Source: an uncultured Candidatus Saccharibacteria bacterium (lineage in GTDB: Bacteria > Patescibacteriota > Minisyncoccia > Phycocordibacterales > Phycocordibacteraceae). From it: DNA of 64,000 bases. The notes below the pieces were generated by a model. That model had not been told where the DNA came from, ran no database searches, and worked only from the letters and a program-made list of their open reading frames with translations. The first letter of the stretch is position 1, and each line of letters begins with the position of its first letter. The stretch is taken from the NCBI GenBank assembly GCA_964507275.1, contig CAZDPG010000001.1, forward strand, positions 188,061 through 252,060, written 5' to 3'. Position numbers and translations under genes: made by a program. Of this stretch, positions 1-7,363 are shown piece by piece.

Positions 1-1767
1 ACTGACGCTACGGATGTGAACTTCACCTTCGGCTCTTCCTTCATCCTGCAAAAGAATGTTTCGGCAACCGTAGATATATACGCAGATGCCAAAACGACAA
101 CAGGAGCCGCATTCAGTAATAACGACACGGCAACAGTCTCTATCGGTCAGGGTTCGGCAAATGGTCAGGGCCAAGTCACGCTATCTACCATTGATGTACC
201 TACCTCGGCGGTTGTGGCTAACACAATAACAATTTCTGCCTCCTCACTTACATCAGCAAAATATTCAGGATACAGCAATCAGACCACGATTGCAGGCACA
301 AATAATGCCAGACTCGGCTCATTTACTCTTTCAACAGGTTCCATGGAAAGCGTGAATGTGAATACAATTACAGTAGCTCTTTCTGCAGACGAGTCTGCAA
401 CCATTACGGATCTCATGTTGAAGGACAACGCAACTGGCACGCAGATAGGCACGACAAAGGCGACACCTTCTACGAGCAATGCGTTCTCAGTCAACTTCAA
501 TATCGCAGCATCTGGGACGAAGGTTGTCGATGTCTATGGCAACATAAAGTCTGGTGCAAATGTTGGTCAATGGATTGCGACTGTTGTTGATGTGTCCGGG
601 ACAGGATCTGTGACTGGCAGTGCCATTAGTGGTGCAACTGCGACTGATCTTCAAACAATTACTATTGGTTCGGCTATTCTCACGGCTACAGTCGGAACAT
701 CGCCTGATAATGCGAATGTTATTGCAGGCTCTAGCATGGTAAAGGTCGGTTCGTTTGACTTCGCCGCGCAGTATTCTGGTTACACAATCGATAAGATTAA
801 GGTGAAGATTTCTGCGAACGCTGCGACTGCGGTCTCCTCAATTACCTTGAGATATCCGAATGCCAACGGTGTATCAACGGATACAGTGCAGTCTATTGTC
901 GGTTCCTCGGGCAGTCAGTCGCACGCAACGTCGACATTCACCGGCCTTACATTCTATGTCCCATCGGGCACAACAAAGAAGCTTGATGTGTACGTGAATT
1001 TGAGCACTATCCAGAACGATGGTGATTCGGGGAAGTCCGTATCGGTTGTGCTTGATGCTGACGAAGGGTTCCGAGCAACTGATTCTTCTGGCTCAACGAA
1101 GACATTACTTGCAAATTCTGATATTGCTTCAAATGATACAAGTGGAAAGGGTACGATGTATGTGAGGAAGTCCATTCCGACTCTTTCTGCGGTCGCACTT
1201 GATACCTCTACACTCTCTAATGGATCAAATAAGGTTCTTGGGCGTATGAAAATTACGGCAGATGCAGCCGGAGATATAAGTTGGAATAAACTTGTCTTTA
1301 CTGTTAATAAGACAGCAGCTCTGACTCTTGGAGCAACATCAACTATCGCACTCTGGCAGGGCCCAAGTCAGATCGCAGGCATCTTTGCCACAACAACTGG
1401 AAGCCACGAGGCACAGTTACAAGCGTTCACGACTTCGGCAACAAGTGGCGCGCTGGTATTCGTTCCAACGAGTGAACAGCAAGTATCTGCAGGTACATCA
1501 ATCACTTATGAGCTTCGTGGAACGGTTGGTGGTATCTCATCTGCCGGAGGATATTCATTTGATGTTTCAATTTGGAATCTTTCTACTTCCGCGACGACAG
1601 GTACGGCTTCAGAGATTGGCGTCACAGCAGTTATCGACCCGTCATTCACTTGGTCTGACAGGTCGTCTGTCGCTCTAGTTCATTCCCTGACGACCTCCGA
1701 CTGGACCAACGATTATCTCGTGAGAACTCTGCCTCTTACCGTCGGCAATCTCTCGGTATCGATCTAA
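1..1767 (+). CDS. Ser/Thr/Gly/Ala-rich secreted/surface repeat protein, 5' partial (open to window start)
   Basis: The reading frame is open from nt 1, and the first Met is at 16. Composition is extremely S/T/G/A-rich and beta-strand-like, with internal module repeats (e.g. SAKYSGYSNQT... near res 80 and AAQYSGYTIDK... near res 250). No catalytic motif. Typical of a surface/S-layer-like protein. Confidence 0.6.
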   Translation, partial: TDATDVNFTFGSSFILQKNVSATVDIYADAKTTTGAAFSNNDTATVSIGQGSANGQGQVTLSTIDVPTSAVVANTITISASSLTSAKYSGYSNQTTIAGTNNARLGSFTLSTGSMESVNVNTITVALSADESATITDLMLKDNATGTQIGTTKATPSTSNAFSVNFNIAASGTKVVDVYGNIKSGANVGQWIATVVDVSGTGSVTGSAISGATATDLQTITIGSAILTATVGTSPDNANVIAGSSMVKVGSFDFAAQYSGYTIDKIKVKISANAATAVSSITLRYPNANGVSTDTVQSIVGSSGSQSHATSTFTGLTFYVPSGTTKKLDVYVNLSTIQNDGDSGKSVSVVLDADEGFRATDSSGSTKTLLANSDIASNDTSGKGTMYVRKSIPTLSAVALDTSTLSNGSNKVLGRMKITADAAGDISWNKLVFTVNKTAALTLGATSTIALWQGPSQIAGIFATTTGSHEAQLQAFTTSATSGALVFVPTSEQQVSAGTSITYELRGTVGGISSAGGYSFDVSIWNLSTSATTGTASEIGVTAVIDPSFTWSDRSSVALVHSLTTSDWTNDYLVRTLPLTVGNLSVSI

Positions 1768-3026
1768 TGCATATGTATCGGCACAGACTTCTTATCGTCG
1801 TCGTAATCATTGGGTTGGTGGCTTTACCGTCTTTGGCTCTCGCCGCACCTGGTATTCCTGCGCAGTTTTATGGAACTGTGCAAAATGGATCAGGAACAGC
1901 ATCATCGGGTTTAACTGTTAATGCCCTCATAAACGGAATTGTGATTGCCACGACGACTACTCAGAGCGACGGTAGTTATGGCTCGTCACCGAATCTTCTT
2001 ATCATCTCAGACGCGAACGGGACGCTCGCAGGGACTACTATCACATTCAAAGTGAACGGTGTTGCCGTATCTCAGACAGCAACATTTGCAAACGCGTTGC
2101 TCACTCATCTCGACCTCGCCATCTCTAGTTCTGCTCAGGTACTTAGTGAAAACATAACCGTCAGTACAAGCCGTCCAGAGATTTTAGTTGGTACGAGCAA
2201 CATCACTAGCTCTACAATCACAATCCCTAGTAGTGTGACCAATGCAACGATCAACATATCTGCGATTACAACGAATACCGCGAATAGCACTACAGCGACT
2301 ATTCAGGCTCCAATGACTATTAACGCTTCTACGGCTATTGGGGCCGTGAATGTAGAAATACCAGCCGGCCTCCAAATAACGGCTGGTACTCCAACGTGGA
2401 ACGGAGTCATTAATGTTCCGCAGATAAAGGAAAATTCTACTGTTACGGCCACGCCAGACAGTGGGAATACAGCCGCTGTTTCTTCTGTTATTGAAATTGG
2501 CTATGGCGATACGAAATTAACCTTTAGTAAGGCTGTGCGAATAAAAATAGCCGGTCAGGCGGGCAAATATGTTGGGTATTCACGCGGTGGAGTGTTCACT
2601 ACAATTACAAATGTCTGCGGTGCTGATTCTCAAACAACTGGTGATGCTCTGTCCGCGGAAGGAGACTGTAAGATTAGTGTCGGTTCGGACATGATCATTT
2701 GGACCAAGCATTTTACGAATTTCGTCACATACACACAGACATCTATTCCTGCTTCAACACCTGCTCCATCAGGCGGTGGTGGTGGAGGGGGCGGAGGAGG
2801 AGGCTCGATAGCTACTACTGCTACGATAACTACCGCCACAACGACATTAAATGTAGTCAAAAAGGCAGATGTTAATATTGACGGTAAGGTGGACTTCTTA
2901 GACTTCAATTCGCTCATGGTGCATTGGGGTCAGTCGGGGGCGAGTGTTACCGGAGACTTTAATAGCGATAATATTGTGGATTTCCTCGACTTTAATATGC
3001 TTATGGTTAACTGGACTAAAATATGA
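1767..3026 (+). CDS. Secreted dockerin-containing protein (N-terminal signal peptide, CarboxypepD_reg-like beta-sandwich, Gly11 linker, C-terminal type-I dockerin)
   Basis: Signal peptide LLIVVVIIGLVALPSLALAAPG. The GTVQNGSGTASSGLTVN...SDGSYG segment resembles carboxypeptidase-regulatory-like domains. The C-terminus carries two Ca-binding dockerin repeats, DVNIDGKVDFLD and DFNSDNIVDFLD. A run of 11 Gly precedes the dockerin. Confidence 0.75.
   Translation: MHMYRHRLLIVVVIIGLVALPSLALAAPGIPAQFYGTVQNGSGTASSGLTVNALINGIVIATTTTQSDGSYGSSPNLLIISDANGTLAGTTITFKVNGVAVSQTATFANALLTHLDLAISSSAQVLSENITVSTSRPEILVGTSNITSSTITIPSSVTNATINISAITTNTANSTTATIQAPMTINASTAIGAVNVEIPAGLQITAGTPTWNGVINVPQIKENSTVTATPDSGNTAAVSSVIEIGYGDTKLTFSKAVRIKIAGQAGKYVGYSRGGVFTTITNVCGADSQTTGDALSAEGDCKISVGSDMIIWTKHFTNFVTYTQTSIPASTPAPSGGGGGGGGGGGSIATTATITTATTTLNVVKKADVNIDGKVDFLDFNSLMVHWGQSGASVTGDFNSDNIVDFLDFNMLMVNWTKI
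2772..2804 (+). repeat. (GGN)11 simple repeat encoding an 11-glycine linker
   Basis: ggc ggt ggt ggt gga ggg ggc gga gga gga ggc, in frame with the 1767 ORF. Confidence 0.8.
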
Positions 3027-3775
3027 AAAACTATATGAAAATTATCTCGGTTCTTGGTGTTTTCGCTCTGCTCACCCCGATGAGTGCGTTGGCGGCAAGC
3101 GTCTCACTATCACCGACAACGATGTCGATACACACGGGAGACACATTTAGCGTGTCTGTCACAGCAGACCCTGCTTCAACCAAACTCTATAGTGTCCGCG
3201 CCAATGTCTCTTTTGATCCGTCACTGGTTGAAATCACAAACTTCTCTTTTGCCAGTGCTTGGATGTCAATTGCACAGCCTGGCTACGATTCAGTCGACAA
3301 TTCAAACGGTATTCTCATCAAGGCGGCTGGTTATCCTGGCGGATTCGCTTCTGCGACGAAGCTCGGCACGATTACGTTCAAGGCAATCAAGACAGGTACG
3401 GCAACAATAAACAGTACGAATAGCTCGCTTCTTCTAGACGCGGTGAGTAAGAATCAAATTAGTGGTACACAAGGGAGTATCTCAGTCTCTATCACTTCAG
3501 CACCGACAATGTCCGTGAAGACGACACCTAAACCGACTACTGTTTCTCCAGCAAAAGCGAAAACACCTGTAGTCACATCTGTCGTCGAACCTATTGCGGA
3601 AGCGACCTCAACCACATCGACCACGATTGCTACAAGTTCACTGTTGGCTGCTGTTAACGGAGCTATCACATTCGGGACCGGAAGCCCGATTGTCTCCGCA
3701 ATACTTTCCGCTGTTGTGGTGCTTCTAGTTATCTACGGTCTCTATTACTACCGTTACTACCGCCGTAACTGGTAA
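3023..3775 (+). CDS. Membrane-anchored cohesin-domain protein (signal peptide, cohesin domain, S/T-rich stalk, C-terminal TM anchor)
   Basis: Signal peptide MKIISVLGVFALLTPMSALA. The FSVSVTADP...VSFDPSLVEI...GILIKAAGYPGGFASATKLGTITFKAIKTGTATIN block matches the cohesin fold pattern (..fDP.vLEi.. / G.fa.i.Fka.k.G). The C-terminus has a hydrophobic helix followed by YYRYYRRNW. The start overlaps the stop of the upstream dockerin gene (ATGA). Confidence 0.7.
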   Translation: MKNYMKIISVLGVFALLTPMSALAASVSLSPTTMSIHTGDTFSVSVTADPASTKLYSVRANVSFDPSLVEITNFSFASAWMSIAQPGYDSVDNSNGILIKAAGYPGGFASATKLGTITFKAIKTGTATINSTNSSLLLDAVSKNQISGTQGSISVSITSAPTMSVKTTPKPTTVSPAKAKTPVVTSVVEPIAEATSTTSTTIATSSLLAAVNGAITFGTGSPIVSAILSAVVVLLVIYGLYYYRYYRRNW

Positions 3776-3908
3776 TCTCTTCTGGGCGCAAAAGCTTTTT
3801 GCTCTCAGAAGTGGTAAATGGATTGAGGAAGACTTTTTGGAAACCTTTTCTATCTGACTCCCATTACGTGTATTTGACAAAGCTAGATTTTAAGCAGACC
3901 CTATAGGT

Positions 3909-5147
3909 ATGACAGCTCTCAAGAAAGGAGAGTATTTGAAACGCGAAACCGCGACTAAGGAGGTCTATTATTATTTAGATGAAAAAGAGGGAGTGGACGT
4001 GCTCAGTCGTGAAGTATTTAAAAAGAAACCCCTTGAAATCCATTACCCTTTCGGGCGTCAAGGACAACCTAAGTATCCATTCGTTCGTAGCGTCGAATTC
4101 CACGGCATATCACCCAACATTATTGGCGGGGTGTTCACAGCAACAAATTTTGGCCTTGGTTTTACGAAGAATTTAAATCCTGCTATTTACCAACTTGAGC
4201 ACTTCCCGCGCGTTAACAAGATTCTGATTTCCAGAACACTTCTTTCAAAGATTGACGGGGATAAGGCTATCTTCAATACTGCCGACCTGGAAAGTATTTT
4301 CCAATGGATAAAACCTCTTAAAGACTCGCAATCTGCTGAGCTTAAGAAGGTGGCCAATAATGCTCTTGCAAAAGTATTTCCCAGCAAATTTAAAGCTCAA
4401 AGCGATAGGTATACCAAGGGATTATTGAGTTTGTTTATAAAAAATAAAGAAATAACCTCGGAGAAACTTTCCAAAGAAGATGTTGGCAATGCTCTTAAGC
4501 TAATTCCCGATCATATAACTGAAGAAAGTCTATTTTATAAAACGGAAGAAAAGATCAATTTTATACGATTAAGTGCTGTGAAGAAGAAGTTTAAGAAATT
4601 GGTTGACCAGAAAACTGATAGCAGACAGCTTGAAGAACGGTGCCAAAAATTCTTTGCCGAAAATAATTGGATATTCTCCAACATACTTTCTGTACCTGTG
4701 GCATTTATGGCAGGGAAAGCCTATGTAGGAGGAAAGACGATCGAGAACAAGTCTGGTAAAGAGGCAGATTTTCTTTACAAAAATAACTTGACACAAAATG
4801 TCTTTGTAATTGAAATTAAGACCCCAAAGAAGAAAATAATTGACGCAAAGAAGCCGTATCGAAAACCAGATGTTTTTCCCTTAGGTAAAGAATTAACTGG
4901 AGGACTTGTTCAACTTCTCGATCAACGAGATTCCTTACAGAAAGAATTCTTTACTCTTGCAAAAGGAGGCGAATTTAAATCGTTCAATCCTAAGGGTTTG
5001 CTAGTGATAGGACGAATCAAAGACTTATCCAAACAGCAACTAAAATCTTTTGAACTTTTTCGTAGTAATTTACGGGATATCGAAATAATTACCTATGATG
5101 AATTGTTGGAGCGGACTGATTTGATACTTAAACAATTTGTAAAATAG
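3909..5147 (+). CDS. Shedu-like anti-phage defence protein: variable N-terminal domain plus C-terminal DUF4263 (SduA-type) PD-(D/E)xK nuclease domain
   Basis: The C-terminal half follows the DUF4263 pattern: ...NNWIF... D287 (EADFLY) ... VIEIKTP (E302-x-K304) ... GLVQLLDQ ... LLVIGR ... IEIITYDELL at the C-terminus. AT-rich codon usage. No SD; a TATAGG sits just upstream of the ATG. Confidence 0.55.
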   Translation: MTALKKGEYLKRETATKEVYYYLDEKEGVDVLSREVFKKKPLEIHYPFGRQGQPKYPFVRSVEFHGISPNIIGGVFTATNFGLGFTKNLNPAIYQLEHFPRVNKILISRTLLSKIDGDKAIFNTADLESIFQWIKPLKDSQSAELKKVANNALAKVFPSKFKAQSDRYTKGLLSLFIKNKEITSEKLSKEDVGNALKLIPDHITEESLFYKTEEKINFIRLSAVKKKFKKLVDQKTDSRQLEERCQKFFAENNWIFSNILSVPVAFMAGKAYVGGKTIENKSGKEADFLYKNNLTQNVFVIEIKTPKKKIIDAKKPYRKPDVFPLGKELTGGLVQLLDQRDSLQKEFFTLAKGGEFKSFNPKGLLVIGRIKDLSKQQLKSFELFRSNLRDIEIITYDELLERTDLILKQFVK

Positions 5148-5172
5148 GGTGCCGAAGAAATAATATCCGCAT

Positions 5173-5574
5173 ATGAACGATATACATATCAAATATAAGG
5201 AGAAACCACCTGACGAATTGATTCTCCAGTTTGAGAAACGTATCGATTACTACCTTTCAGGAATTGGAGCCAAGACCAAAGTAATTCTATACGAACACTC
5301 GTTTGATATGCACTCATTCATAAACGGCGTGGAGATGGATATTGAGAGACACTGGATTAACCACTTTCTCGTTTCCACTCCCGAAATTGCAAATTTCGAG
5401 GTACGGATGTTTGAGTCCGGTATTGGAAGTAATTGGAGAGAAACAGCATGGTATGAAGCGCACGAGATCCAAAACCGACTCTATACTCATATCGGAAGAA
5501 ATGCAGGGCATCCACAAGACGGCGATCCTTACTGGCAACTTTGGGAAAAACTAAAGGAAGACGAAGGCCGATGA
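5173..5574 (+). CDS. Hypothetical 133-aa protein, tightly linked (26 nt) downstream of the Shedu-like gene
   Basis: Clean AT-rich ORF with the same strand and composition as the upstream gene. No recognisable motif. A plausible operon partner. Confidence 0.45.
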   Translation: MNDIHIKYKEKPPDELILQFEKRIDYYLSGIGAKTKVILYEHSFDMHSFINGVEMDIERHWINHFLVSTPEIANFEVRMFESGIGSNWRETAWYEAHEIQNRLYTHIGRNAGHPQDGDPYWQLWEKLKEDEGR

Positions 5575-5609
5575 ACCAAAAGCACACCTCATCAAATATA
5601 AAACGCGTC

Positions 5610-5852
5610 TCAAGGAATAAAATTGACTGCGTTTTGTGCCGCTTCTTCTTGTGCAGGTTGTATCTGCTCACCCCAGCAAACTGCAACATCCCAGCGAATC
5701 GGCCAATGGAAGATACAGCTTGTAACAAAACTCCACAAAAATACAACGATAAATGTTGATACAAAAACAACAGCGGCAAATACCCACTGAAATTTCTCAA
5801 AATCCGTCATTTTCTTAGAACGGCTATATCGATATTTTTTATATCTCGCCAT
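5610..5852 (-). CDS. Small predicted membrane protein (80 aa, one TM helix)
   Basis: Hydrophobic segment WVFAAVVFVSTFIVVFLWSFV. Starts 3 nt after the stop of the DUF3761 gene on the same strand. Confidence 0.3.
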   Translation of the reverse strand: MARYKKYRYSRSKKMTDFEKFQWVFAAVVFVSTFIVVFLWSFVTSCIFHWPIRWDVAVCWGEQIQPAQEEAAQNAVNFIP

Positions 5853-5855
5853 ACC

Positions 5856-6278
5856 TTAGAGCCATTCTGCTACTCCTCCATGGTGGGAACAGGTGCCTCG
5901 TCTGTTCTGGCTGAAACTGCAAGTACCATCTCTGCACTCGGCTGAGGCTCCTATCGATGAGCAGCTAGAGGGCGAATACGCTGGAGAGTGAACCTGCTTT
6001 CCATCTACGTTCGTGTAGTAGTTATCGTTGGATAAGGCAGAAGCAGAAGGCTGTGGCTGGGTTATCTGCTTTACGGGAGCAGGCGCGGAAACTTGCTGGC
6101 TGGGCACCACGGGCTGTACAGAGGGTAACTTGGCTTCTACGGCCGCCGCAGGCTGTACAGGAGATTGTTGTGTAGGATCAGCCGAAATGGCGCTACCTAT
6201 GACTAGAGAGGCCACCAATACAAGCGGGATCAAATACCTCTTTTTCTTATACCAAGGCCGTGCTGAAATCGGCTCCAT
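5856..6278 (-). CDS. Membrane-anchored DUF3761-domain protein (N-terminal TM, Pro/Gln-rich linker, C-terminal CRDGTCS...RRGTCSHHGGV motif)
   Basis: The C-terminus ...SAECRDGTCSFSQNRRGTCSHHGGVAEWL matches the DUF3761 signature (GxCSxHGGV). N-terminal TM helix LIPLVLVASLVIGSAI. Confidence 0.55.
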   Translation of the reverse strand: MEPISARPWYKKKRYLIPLVLVASLVIGSAISADPTQQSPVQPAAAVEAKLPSVQPVVPSQQVSAPAPVKQITQPQPSASALSNDNYYTNVDGKQVHSPAYSPSSCSSIGASAECRDGTCSFSQNRRGTCSHHGGVAEWL

Positions 6279-6312
6279 GGCCGCACCCTACTCTTTCGTC
6301 TATAATTAGCAA

Positions 6313-6810
6313 ATGGGGAAAATTGTTCTACTGAGTGGAATTCCTGCGTCAGGGAAATCCACACATGGTAAGTGGTTAGAGACAGAGATGGGCTGTGTCT
6401 ATTGGGACTTAGAACACGAAACACTGGAAGAAGCTGGGACAAGGGCTGGATTGTATCTAGGTACAAATGCCGACCTTGGAAGTTTGCTGGCGGTGGCGAA
6501 GAGAATATCTAAGACCATTGTCATTGACTGGGGATTCCCACCCGACGTATGTCTCAATACCGTCCGATGGCTTTCTGAAAACGGAGTAGAAATCTGGTGG
6601 TTCGACGGAGACCGAGAGGCAGCAAGAATTTCGTTCTTAAGAAGAAGTCCAGAGCTTGAACAGGCACTAGATATACAAATGGAGAAGATAGTAAGATTTG
6701 ATACTGAGATAAAAGACCTATTTGAGGATCATCAAATAAACTCGGTTACGCTTGGCCCTAAATATTTATCACACAAGAAAATCTACAAAACATTGTTTCC
6801 AGAGAACTAA
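6313..6810 (+). CDS. Small P-loop NTPase / AAA_33-like kinase-fold protein
   Basis: Walker A GIPASGKST at residues 9-17. A hhhhD Walker B-like TIVIDWGF. 165 aa, AT-rich. Confidence 0.6.
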   Translation: MGKIVLLSGIPASGKSTHGKWLETEMGCVYWDLEHETLEEAGTRAGLYLGTNADLGSLLAVAKRISKTIVIDWGFPPDVCLNTVRWLSENGVEIWWFDGDREAARISFLRRSPELEQALDIQMEKIVRFDTEIKDLFEDHQINSVTLGPKYLSHKKIYKTLFPEN

Positions 6811-6896
6811 AGCCTCTGTAGTTGAGGGAGGTTGAAGAATTCAAACGTTTTAGATACATCCAAAGTTCGGAACTCGTACCACCGTGCGAGCAAAAT

Positions 6897-6925
6897 GAAA
6901 AAGCGCCACAAGGGCGTTTTTTCAT
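6897..6925. terminator. Short GC hairpin with flanking A-run/T-run, a putative bidirectional intrinsic terminator between convergent genes
   Basis: aaaaa-GCGCC-acaa-GGGCG-tttttt, sited between the + gene ending at 6810 and the - gene ending at 6952. Confidence 0.4.
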
Positions 6926-6951
6926 TTCTATACCAAACAGCGGCGCTGACT

Positions 6952-7245
6952 TTACTTTCCCTCCATCAGTCTTTTGAAACCTAGGGCGAGCAATATGAGA
7001 CCGAGAAGAAAGATGAAATGGTGTGTGGTCTCCAGAGTAGACGCGCTCATAGCCAGTACATCAGGGTCAACCGTCTCGATGATTTGAGAAAAGCCGATAA
7101 CCACGATGCCGTATCCAATCTTGGTTAAAGACTCACCTATAAGCCCGCCATATCCTTTTAATTTGAAGAGGATCCATAGTGCCAAAAACACTATTACTAG
7201 ATCCAATAGTATTGTCATGATTTCCATTGCAATATTGTAATCCAT
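6952..7245 (-). CDS. Small membrane protein (97 aa, ~3 TM helices)
   Basis: Hydrophobic helices ILLDLVIVFLALWILF, IGYGIVVIGFSQII and FIFLLGLILLALGF. AT-rich. Confidence 0.4.
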   Translation of the reverse strand: MDYNIAMEIMTILLDLVIVFLALWILFKLKGYGGLIGESLTKIGYGIVVIGFSQIIETVDPDVLAMSASTLETTHHFIFLLGLILLALGFKRLMEGK

Positions 7246-7363
7246 TTATAGAGATATACACGAAGCAAACTCGAACATCCCCAGGAAATTTAAAGCAGGG
7301 CATATTTCAGCAGCTTCCGCACCTTGATAAAGGGGGGCAGGATATCCGTGATATCATGAAGCT

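Follow-up and report, generated by a model that had tools for sequence, protein, structure and literature searches.

ORF133, an open reading frame (ORF) of 133 codons, lies directly behind a gene for a Shedu nuclease (sduA) in a stretch of 64,000 nucleotides (nt) from an uncultured Candidatus Saccharibacteria bacterium (contig CAZDPG010000001.1, positions 188,061 to 252,060), which is here called the window. It is a genuine gene under constraint, and it belongs to a family of Patescibacteria in which nearly every member stands second, on the 3' side, in a tight pair of co-directional genes with a variable 5' gene. Repeatedly, that 5' gene encodes a Shedu nuclease. The reading that we favour, tentatively and with slightly less than even confidence, is that ORF133 may be a partner subunit, reused across loci, by which the product of the gene upstream is stabilised or restrained, and that the locus would be a two-gene variant of Shedu. 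The elements of the pair, in window coordinates, are as follows.

3909..5147, + strand: sduA, encoding a Shedu nuclease of 412 amino acids (aa) with a C-terminal DUF4263/SduA_C PD-(D/E)xK domain
5148..5172, + strand: spacer GGTGCCGAAGAAATAATATCCGCAT, 25 nt, between sduA and ORF133
5173..5574, + strand: ORF133, ATG start, 133 aa, member of an unnamed, Patescibacteria-restricted family
5449..5484 (codons 93-104), + strand: conserved helix motif W-x-[DE]-A-x-x-I-Q-x-x-x-Y of ORF133
5524..5544 (codons 118-124), + strand: conserved C-terminal signature D-P-Y-W-x-L-W of ORF133

The original prediction, made by a model from the letters of the window, described the upstream gene as Shedu-like. It is a bona fide sduA, and the identity of the gene at 3909-5147 as a Shedu nuclease is, judged by its sequence, beyond reasonable doubt. 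Residues 242-400 of the protein match Pfam PF14082 (SduA_C) at E=7.7e-27, with 94.8 bits against a gathering score of 27, and 22 PADLOC SduA models match the protein (best PDLC00384, E=8.8e-64). The PD-(D/E)xK residues D287, E302 and K304 (motif ADFLY...VIEIKTP) are intact, and are invariant relative to three other SduA proteins. ORF133 itself is present as predicted, on the same strand and with an ATG start, while the gap of 26 nt first given for the pair measures 25 nt. No terminator-like hairpin occurs on the + strand of the spacer, and the sole promoter-like site there (5137-5164) is at the level of shuffled sequence. Repeats, attC-like sites and terminators were sought around the pair as a whole, and nothing beyond chance was found. 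The predicted operon thus stands as a same-strand, operon-like arrangement with a bona fide sduA and a terminator-free spacer, in which ORF133 would be co-transcribed with sduA.

That ORF133 might be no gene at all, only a chance ORF in AT-rich DNA, has practically nothing left to recommend it. Long chance ORFs do arise in such DNA, and ORF133 carries neither a database annotation nor a family name, but its sole close homologue, P0002 (83% identical, from a 1.3-kb Logan contig), differs from it at 93 of 399 nucleotides, and 65 of the 93 differences are at third codon positions. The resulting ratio of nonsynonymous to synonymous differences (pN/pS) is 0.12, with synonymous sites saturated. Among 1.84 billion cluster representatives searched exhaustively with HMMER, 59 protein clusters (50% identity) match ORF133 at E<1e-3, 27 of them at E<1e-10; among the matches listed, most are 125-140 aa long and align from end to end, with a few outliers of 73-177 aa. 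An AlphaFold2 model, built with the family alignment, has a mean predicted local distance difference test score (pLDDT) of 95.5 and a predicted template modelling score (pTM) of 0.86. The pN/pS ratio, the homologous clusters and the pLDDT together refute a chance ORF, and supply the conservation and coding signal on which the original prediction had hung.

The %G+C is 42.3 for ORF133 and 37.4 for sduA, as against 55-57 for the genome core (housekeeping genes from ~7.3 kb onward). Both genes are thus AT-rich relative to their host, as had been stated, but the matching composition claimed for them does not hold closely, since they are 5 GC points apart. The ORF133 protein is soluble and mildly acidic (isoelectric point, pI, 5.4; net charge -8), the family median pI being also 5.4, and no transmembrane or hydrophobic segment was found in it. 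SduA is basic, with a pI of 9.6. Identical copies of the ORF133 protein are present on contigs from groundwater metagenomes.

In an alignment of 58 family sequences, four residues are invariant (P12, L28, W61 and Q100) and seven are nearly so (W93, A96, Y104, Y120, W121, L123 and W124). The signature of the family, over a length of ~125-140 aa, consists of K-P-[ST] in the N-terminal region, an invariant Trp, the helix motif W-x-[DE]-A-x-x-I-Q-x-x-x-Y and the C-terminal D-P-Y-W-x-L-W, and ORF133 carries every position of it. Within the helix motif, W93 is conserved in 54/58 sequences, A96 in 56/58, I99 in 50/58, Q100 in 58/58 and Y104 in 55/58; the corresponding values for the C-terminal signature are D118 52/58, P119 44/58, Y120 57/58, W121 57/58, L123 54/58 and W124 56/58. 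None of the invariant residues resembles any known catalytic motif, and most of the conserved positions are aromatic or hydrophobic; the chief polar ones are Q100 and D118. The His-rich stretch pointed out in the original prediction (AHEIQNRLYTHIGRNAGH) does exist, at residues 96-113, and the helix motif overlaps its start, but the histidines are poorly conserved across the 58 members (H97 in 11, H106 in 14 and H113 in 6). A metal site at this stretch is ruled out because the histidines are not conserved.

The predicted topology of ORF133 is beta1-alpha1-beta2-beta3-beta4-alpha2-alpha3, in which the two strands at residues 34-50 and 53-68 are long, and the modelled alpha/beta fold of the family is apparently new. 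Comparison of the model with PDB and BFVD by Foldseek, a check proposed in the original prediction, gave nothing at E<=0.001, and the family profile gave nothing below E=0.6 against PDB sequences. The observation that no motif could be recognised is confirmed: no Pfam, NCBIfam or PADLOC model matches ORF133, scans of these three and of PHROGs gave nothing above noise, and scans of Pfam and PHROGs with all 58 aligned members gave only single-member matches at E>0.002. The family is absent from every library searched. A word-indexed protein search with ORF133 returned only the identical protein and the one 83% homologue, to which an alignment query added five; it took the exhaustive HMMER scan to bring the family into view. 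A degenerate DNA pattern for [NDGS]DPYW[KE]LW returned 20 stretches, including 6 true members, one of them a duplicate of a Magasanikbacteria locus (L034).

Those members that carry a taxonomic name are essentially all Patescibacteria, and include Paceibacterota, Magasanikbacteria, Nealsonbacteria, Wolfebacteria and Zambryskiibacteriota. Two GTDB contigs labelled ‘uncultured Gammaproteobacteria’ also carry members (L057, CAZEYK010000002.1, and L060, CAYOFO010000072.1); since L057 is 100% identical to L034, both are probably mis-binned DNA of the candidate phyla radiation (CPR). Relatives of ORF133 in phages and viruses were sought by a pattern scan of IMG/VR, by tblastn against INPHARED, in PHROGs and among BFVD folds, and none was found; PLSDB gave none from plasmids. 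A phage-encoded anti-defence protein was considered and was rejected on the first four of these searches.

The context of the family was surveyed at 28 independent loci that encode a member. At four of the 28, SduA is encoded directly upstream in the same direction, with gaps of -4 to 25 nt, and the small partner has 125-136 aa.

Window: gap of 25 nt; ORF133 itself, with the 412-aa SduA upstream
L039: gap of 6 nt; small protein 42% identical to ORF133, with a 403-aa SduA_C protein upstream
L036: gap of 10 nt; small protein 44% identical to ORF133, with an SduA fragment at the contig edge
L024/L033: overlap of 4 nt; small protein 40% identical to ORF133, with an SduA fragment

Because homologues of ORF133 follow SduA at these independent loci, co-localisation of the family with DUF4263 genes, proposed originally as a check, is borne out. 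SduA occupies position -1 in each case and no other position among ~200 neighbouring genes, and a profile built from the four paired SduA proteins detected no further SduA in all frames of the other fetched loci. This means that the association is position-specific, which gives a built-in check against the mere sharing of islands. Given the rarity of Shedu genes, chance is not a plausible source of four such adjacencies, although this is an estimate and not a computed value. Identity between the nuclease halves of the paired SduA proteins is just 25-28% (54% between L036 and L039), and different PADLOC SduA models match them best; the small proteins of the pairs are 37-47% identical. Given the strong divergence of the paired SduA proteins, the pairing is either ancient or has arisen repeatedly. 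Neighbour-joining places the four Shedu-linked members in a single clade of nine. A Shedu nuclease is the usual 5' gene in this clade, for which reason the locus may be read as a two-gene Shedu cassette. An all-against-all BLAST of the neighbours (+/-4 genes) revealed no conserved third gene around the pairs.

The same clade holds a further locus, L022, in which the member (47% identical to ORF133) directly abuts an upstream 400-aa gene with an ‘RPDFV...LVILELKRP’ core. The two genes are part of a three-gene run (L022 815-2810) with gaps of 0-1 nt, in which the 400-aa protein has an N-terminal zinc ribbon, a C-terminal Shedu-like D...ExK core and a weak HSDR_N match, and the third protein, of 131 aa, is Cys-rich and zinc-ribbon-like, with no family match. 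The 400-aa protein was not accepted as a Shedu: only its 27-column D...ExK core aligns (hhalign probability 14%), and it is classed as a PD-(D/E)xK protein of Shedu-like architecture.

Several observations weigh against the favoured reading. The link to SduA is neither exclusive nor obligatory, being absent from 24 of the 28 independent loci. The closest homologue (P0002) begins 1 nt behind a PG_binding_1 gene and yet remains subject to purifying selection, and a homologue with 57% identity starts 11 nt after glyS, the gene for glycyl-tRNA synthetase (GlyRS). As the closest homologues follow other genes, a gene of the ORF133 type does not need Shedu; for yet another member of the clade, the ORF upstream is zinc-ribbon-like and has 62 aa. 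The upstream genes met across the family are mutually unrelated (ThsB-TIR, HARE-HTH, Ser_hydrolase, Hsp20, transmembrane proteins and unknowns), and a protein that is the direct physical partner of all their products is hard to picture. Shedu is documented as a self-sufficient and widespread single gene. A published survey of 5,499 Shedu neighbourhoods found as recurrent neighbours only restriction-modification (RM), BREX, transposons, prophages and histidine kinases, and reported no such partner (bioRxiv 10.1101/2023.08.10.552793). The ORF133 family, for its part, is confined to Patescibacteria. The two-gene Shedu variant proposed in the original prediction is thus partly supported, by the recurrent pairing with SduA, but the small gene does not look Shedu-specific, as PG_binding_1, glyS and other genes take the place of sduA elsewhere.

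A population variant adds to these points. The relevant elements of the window are the following.

4818..4834, no strand assigned: break point inside sduA, at which some assemblies of this population part from the window sequence or stop
5159..5180, + strand: 22-nt stretch that includes the start codon of ORF133; the truncated sduA remnant in L006 begins with a near-copy of this stretch

L006 (JGI 3300009285) comes from the same site but another sample. From 4830 onward it matches the window at 100% identity, the preceding DNA being unrelated, and two other assemblies start nearby, L007 at 4818 and L011 at 4834 (window coordinates). The upstream DNA of L006 (1-1105) contains a fragment of a PaaX_M/Cas2-like gene and ~350 nt of non-coding sequence, in which an Rfam scan found no match. 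The 22-nt stretch at 5159-5180 is unique in the window, 0 matches being expected by chance, and L006 contains two copies of its 12-nt core TCCGCATATGAA (712-723 and 1094-1105). The remnant ORF of L006 has 118 aa, made up of 13 new residues and SduA residues 308-412, and the catalytic triad is gone. L006 therefore keeps an intact ORF133 beside a 5'-truncated sduA without catalytic residues, which counts against an obligate partnership with the nuclease. It is either a strain variant or an artefact of an assembly branch; if the variant is real, ORF133 can persist without a working Shedu.

Such a persistence is also what would be expected if ORF133 were independent island cargo, that is, a self-contained gene of the variable or defence islands of Patescibacteria that stands beside sduA without any functional interaction. 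We regard this as rather unlikely, although it is the alternative to be taken most seriously. The neighbours of the family are highly variable, most of the loci are defence or mobile islands, and the closest homologues are decoupled from Shedu. At L031, where the island also holds AlwI and RAMA/DUF4357, the member follows a Thoeris-type ThsB TIR gene (PADLOC 1e-69), and at L015 a TIR_2 gene overlaps the downstream end of the member and is followed by HD, DUF5680 and NERD genes. The island of L013 includes DUF87 and SLFN_AlbA_2. One member follows a HARE-HTH protein with a D...ExK motif, one follows Ser_hydrolase in an island with a GHKL ATPase, one lies ~300 nt from an NYN nuclease gene, and some follow transmembrane or unknown proteins. 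The window pair itself sits in an island of low %G+C (1-7300; 34-48, compared with 55-57 in the core), and the gene for a large serine recombinase lies 8.7 kb upstream of sduA, a little beyond the limit of the window (L002 1-1263). Against cargo stand the constancy of SduA at position -1, its constant orientation and the narrow range of gaps, all maintained across Shedu lineages of such low identity, since genes that merely share islands at random would vary in position as well as in orientation. In most family loci the upstream neighbour is co-directional and within ~30 nt, and the downstream neighbours are unconstrained. Should the pairing nevertheless be incidental, ORF133 would have to be annotated as a conserved hypothetical protein of Patescibacteria and not as a component of Shedu.

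Two of the loci deserve a separate description. In the complete 647-kb genome of a Nealsonbacteria (CP179889), a compact defence island surrounds the family member (L051 26-6924), and encodes a type IIG RM enzyme (HSDR_N_2 + N6_Mtase + Eco57I), an integrase-like gene, a 190-aa unknown protein, AbiTii and DUF4145. The Shedu pair of L024/L033, too, has a large serine recombinase near it, here a fragment that the pair abuts.

A different setting is found at three independent loci of Patescibacteria, where the member lies between grpE and dnaK (L034 4292-8573, identical to L057; L026 818-5720; L035 3796-8729). The order in the Magasanikbacteria locus L034 is hrcA-grpE-hsp20-X-dnaK, with the member (X) starting 1 nt after hsp20, and the small heat-shock protein is bona fide (PDB phmmer 6.5e-19). 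In L026 and L035, unrelated unknown genes, of 212 and 179 aa, precede the member. These loci make a link between proteostasis and defence testable. They could be explained if ORF133 were a general stress or proteostasis factor, a small protein of heat-shock operons (co-chaperone or stress sensor) with only an indirect link to effectors and no role as a subunit, but this we consider improbable. To about the same low degree we entertain a broader idea, in which the family would be a structurally new plug-in subunit, specific to Patescibacteria, that couples the stress or proteostasis status of the cell to diverse immune effectors. It would act as a shared sensor or licensing module, so that unrelated effectors fire when infection perturbs chaperone capacity. 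The basis for it is the presence of a member in the hrcA-grpE-hsp20-dnaK operon, and elsewhere behind Shedu, ThsB-TIR, PD-(D/E)xK and other effectors. If it were true, Shedu in these organisms would be a two-component, stress-gated system.

Under the favoured reading of ORF133 as a reusable partner subunit, the protein, having no recognisable catalytic motif, would act by binding. It would bind the product of the upstream gene, here SduA, and modulate or stabilise it. The likeliest role would be that of a chaperone-like or ‘safety’ subunit, by which the basic SduA is kept competent yet inactive until triggered. The chaperone-like flavour comes from the member that starts 1 nt after hsp20 and the two more that lie between grpE and dnaK, and the combination of an acidic small protein with a basic SduA is counted in favour of a partner. 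ORF133 is unlikely to contribute catalysis or the recognition of DNA. That the two genes are co-transcribed, that their products interact physically and in which direction the regulation runs are inferred, and it is gene order that suggests a functional link between ORF133 and SduA. The original prediction had offered a regulator, an immunity protein or an accessory factor, and none of these activities, nor any other, can be assigned.

A more specific form of partnership, in which ORF133 is a dedicated antitoxin or immunity protein that inhibits SduA directly in a type II-like manner, so that its loss is lethal, is quite improbable. The tight two-gene arrangement with a nuclease of a toxic type would suit such a role, as would the pairing of acidic and basic proteins, and nuclease-less ‘orphan’ copies (L001, L020) resemble orphan immunity genes. 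Immunity proteins, however, are effector-specific, and the partners of this family, which include unrelated enzymes as well as non-toxins (Hsp20, PG_binding_1, glyS), are too diverse. A DNA-binding or autoregulatory domain was detected neither in the predicted fold nor in the Pfam, NCBIfam and PADLOC scans, and in L006 it is the nuclease that was lost, not the small gene. The published Shedu structures are reported to show autoinhibition by the nuclease's own N-terminal domain (bioRxiv 10.1101/2023.08.10.552762, 10.1101/2023.08.10.552793). A type II toxin-antitoxin system in the strict sense was examined and rejected: the predicted fold contains no helix-turn-helix (HTH) or ribbon-helix-helix (RHH), the three libraries just named contain no domain for it, and co-variation with a toxin is contradicted by upstream partners that include SduA, ThsB-TIR, HARE-HTH, Ser_hydrolase, Hsp20, PG_binding_1 and GlyRS.

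Beyond ORF133, three further genes lie towards the edge of the island.

5610-5852, - strand: 80-aa predicted membrane protein, no family match, convergent with ORF133
5856-6278, - strand: 140-aa DUF3761 protein (E=6.7e-23), Pro/Gln-rich linker and Cys-rich C-terminus, convergent with ORF133
6313-6810, + strand: 165-aa P-loop protein (GIPASGKST), sub-threshold AAA_18 and shikimate-kinase-like matches, at the island edge

The stops of ORF133 and of the 80-aa gene are separated by 35 nt. The island (1-7300) also encodes very large Ser/Thr-rich surface-type proteins, annotated as Big_5 and Cohesin in identical contigs, together with several small orphan genes.

Two systems outside Shedu are useful for comparison. 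Toxin-antitoxin-chaperone (TAC) systems have a SecB-like third gene, at the 3' end of a toxin-containing operon; its product is small, acidic and non-enzymatic, and works by binding to a partner and stabilising it. ORF133 resembles it, as a functional analogy only, in being a small, acidic, non-enzymatic 3' gene of a family with links to chaperone operons, but differs in that no SecB fold is among the matches listed and no antitoxin gene is present at the locus. The ribosome hibernation factors HPF/YfiA/RaiA (S30AE) were likewise taken as a comparison system for ORF133.

Canonical Shedu (SduA, DUF4263), reportedly described by Doron in 2018, is a single-gene system, and the usual view of Shedu is that of an immune nuclease made of one protein, in which the N-terminal domain itself senses the trigger. 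The SduA of the window is like the canonical one in its SduA_C/DUF4263 nuclease domain with an intact D-E-K triad, in its variable N-terminal region and in its island location. Unlike the canonical single gene, it is followed within <=25 nt by a conserved gene of 125-136 aa, here and at three other loci of Patescibacteria. If the favoured reading is true, it would give a first functional handle on a family that has neither a database name nor a recognisable fold, in CPR bacteria, the immune repertoire of which is barely characterised.

The only experimentally described two-gene form is KELShedu (KELA + KELB; Sci Adv 2025, PMC12577705), in which KELA is encoded upstream of the nuclease with a 3-bp gap. 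KELA, whose fold is a WYL-like SH3 barrel, binds dsDNA and assembles with the nuclease into a hetero-octamer (PMC12577705). Like KELShedu, the window locus has a DUF4263 nuclease in a bicistronic arrangement with a small (~12-15 kDa) non-nuclease partner, and KELShedu offers a precedent for the need of some Shedu for a second protein. Unlike KELA, ORF133 is encoded downstream and with a gap of 25 nt, lacks the WYL-like Sm/SH3 beta-barrel fold and has a different taxonomic range, and a sequence relation between the two was not detected. The window locus is a Shedu by its nuclease, which has the DUF4263/SduA_C domain and intact catalytic residues, and it is not of the KELShedu type. A true pairing would place a second, unrelated partner family behind divergent Shedu nucleases, and would imply that the regulation of Shedu has been outsourced more than once.
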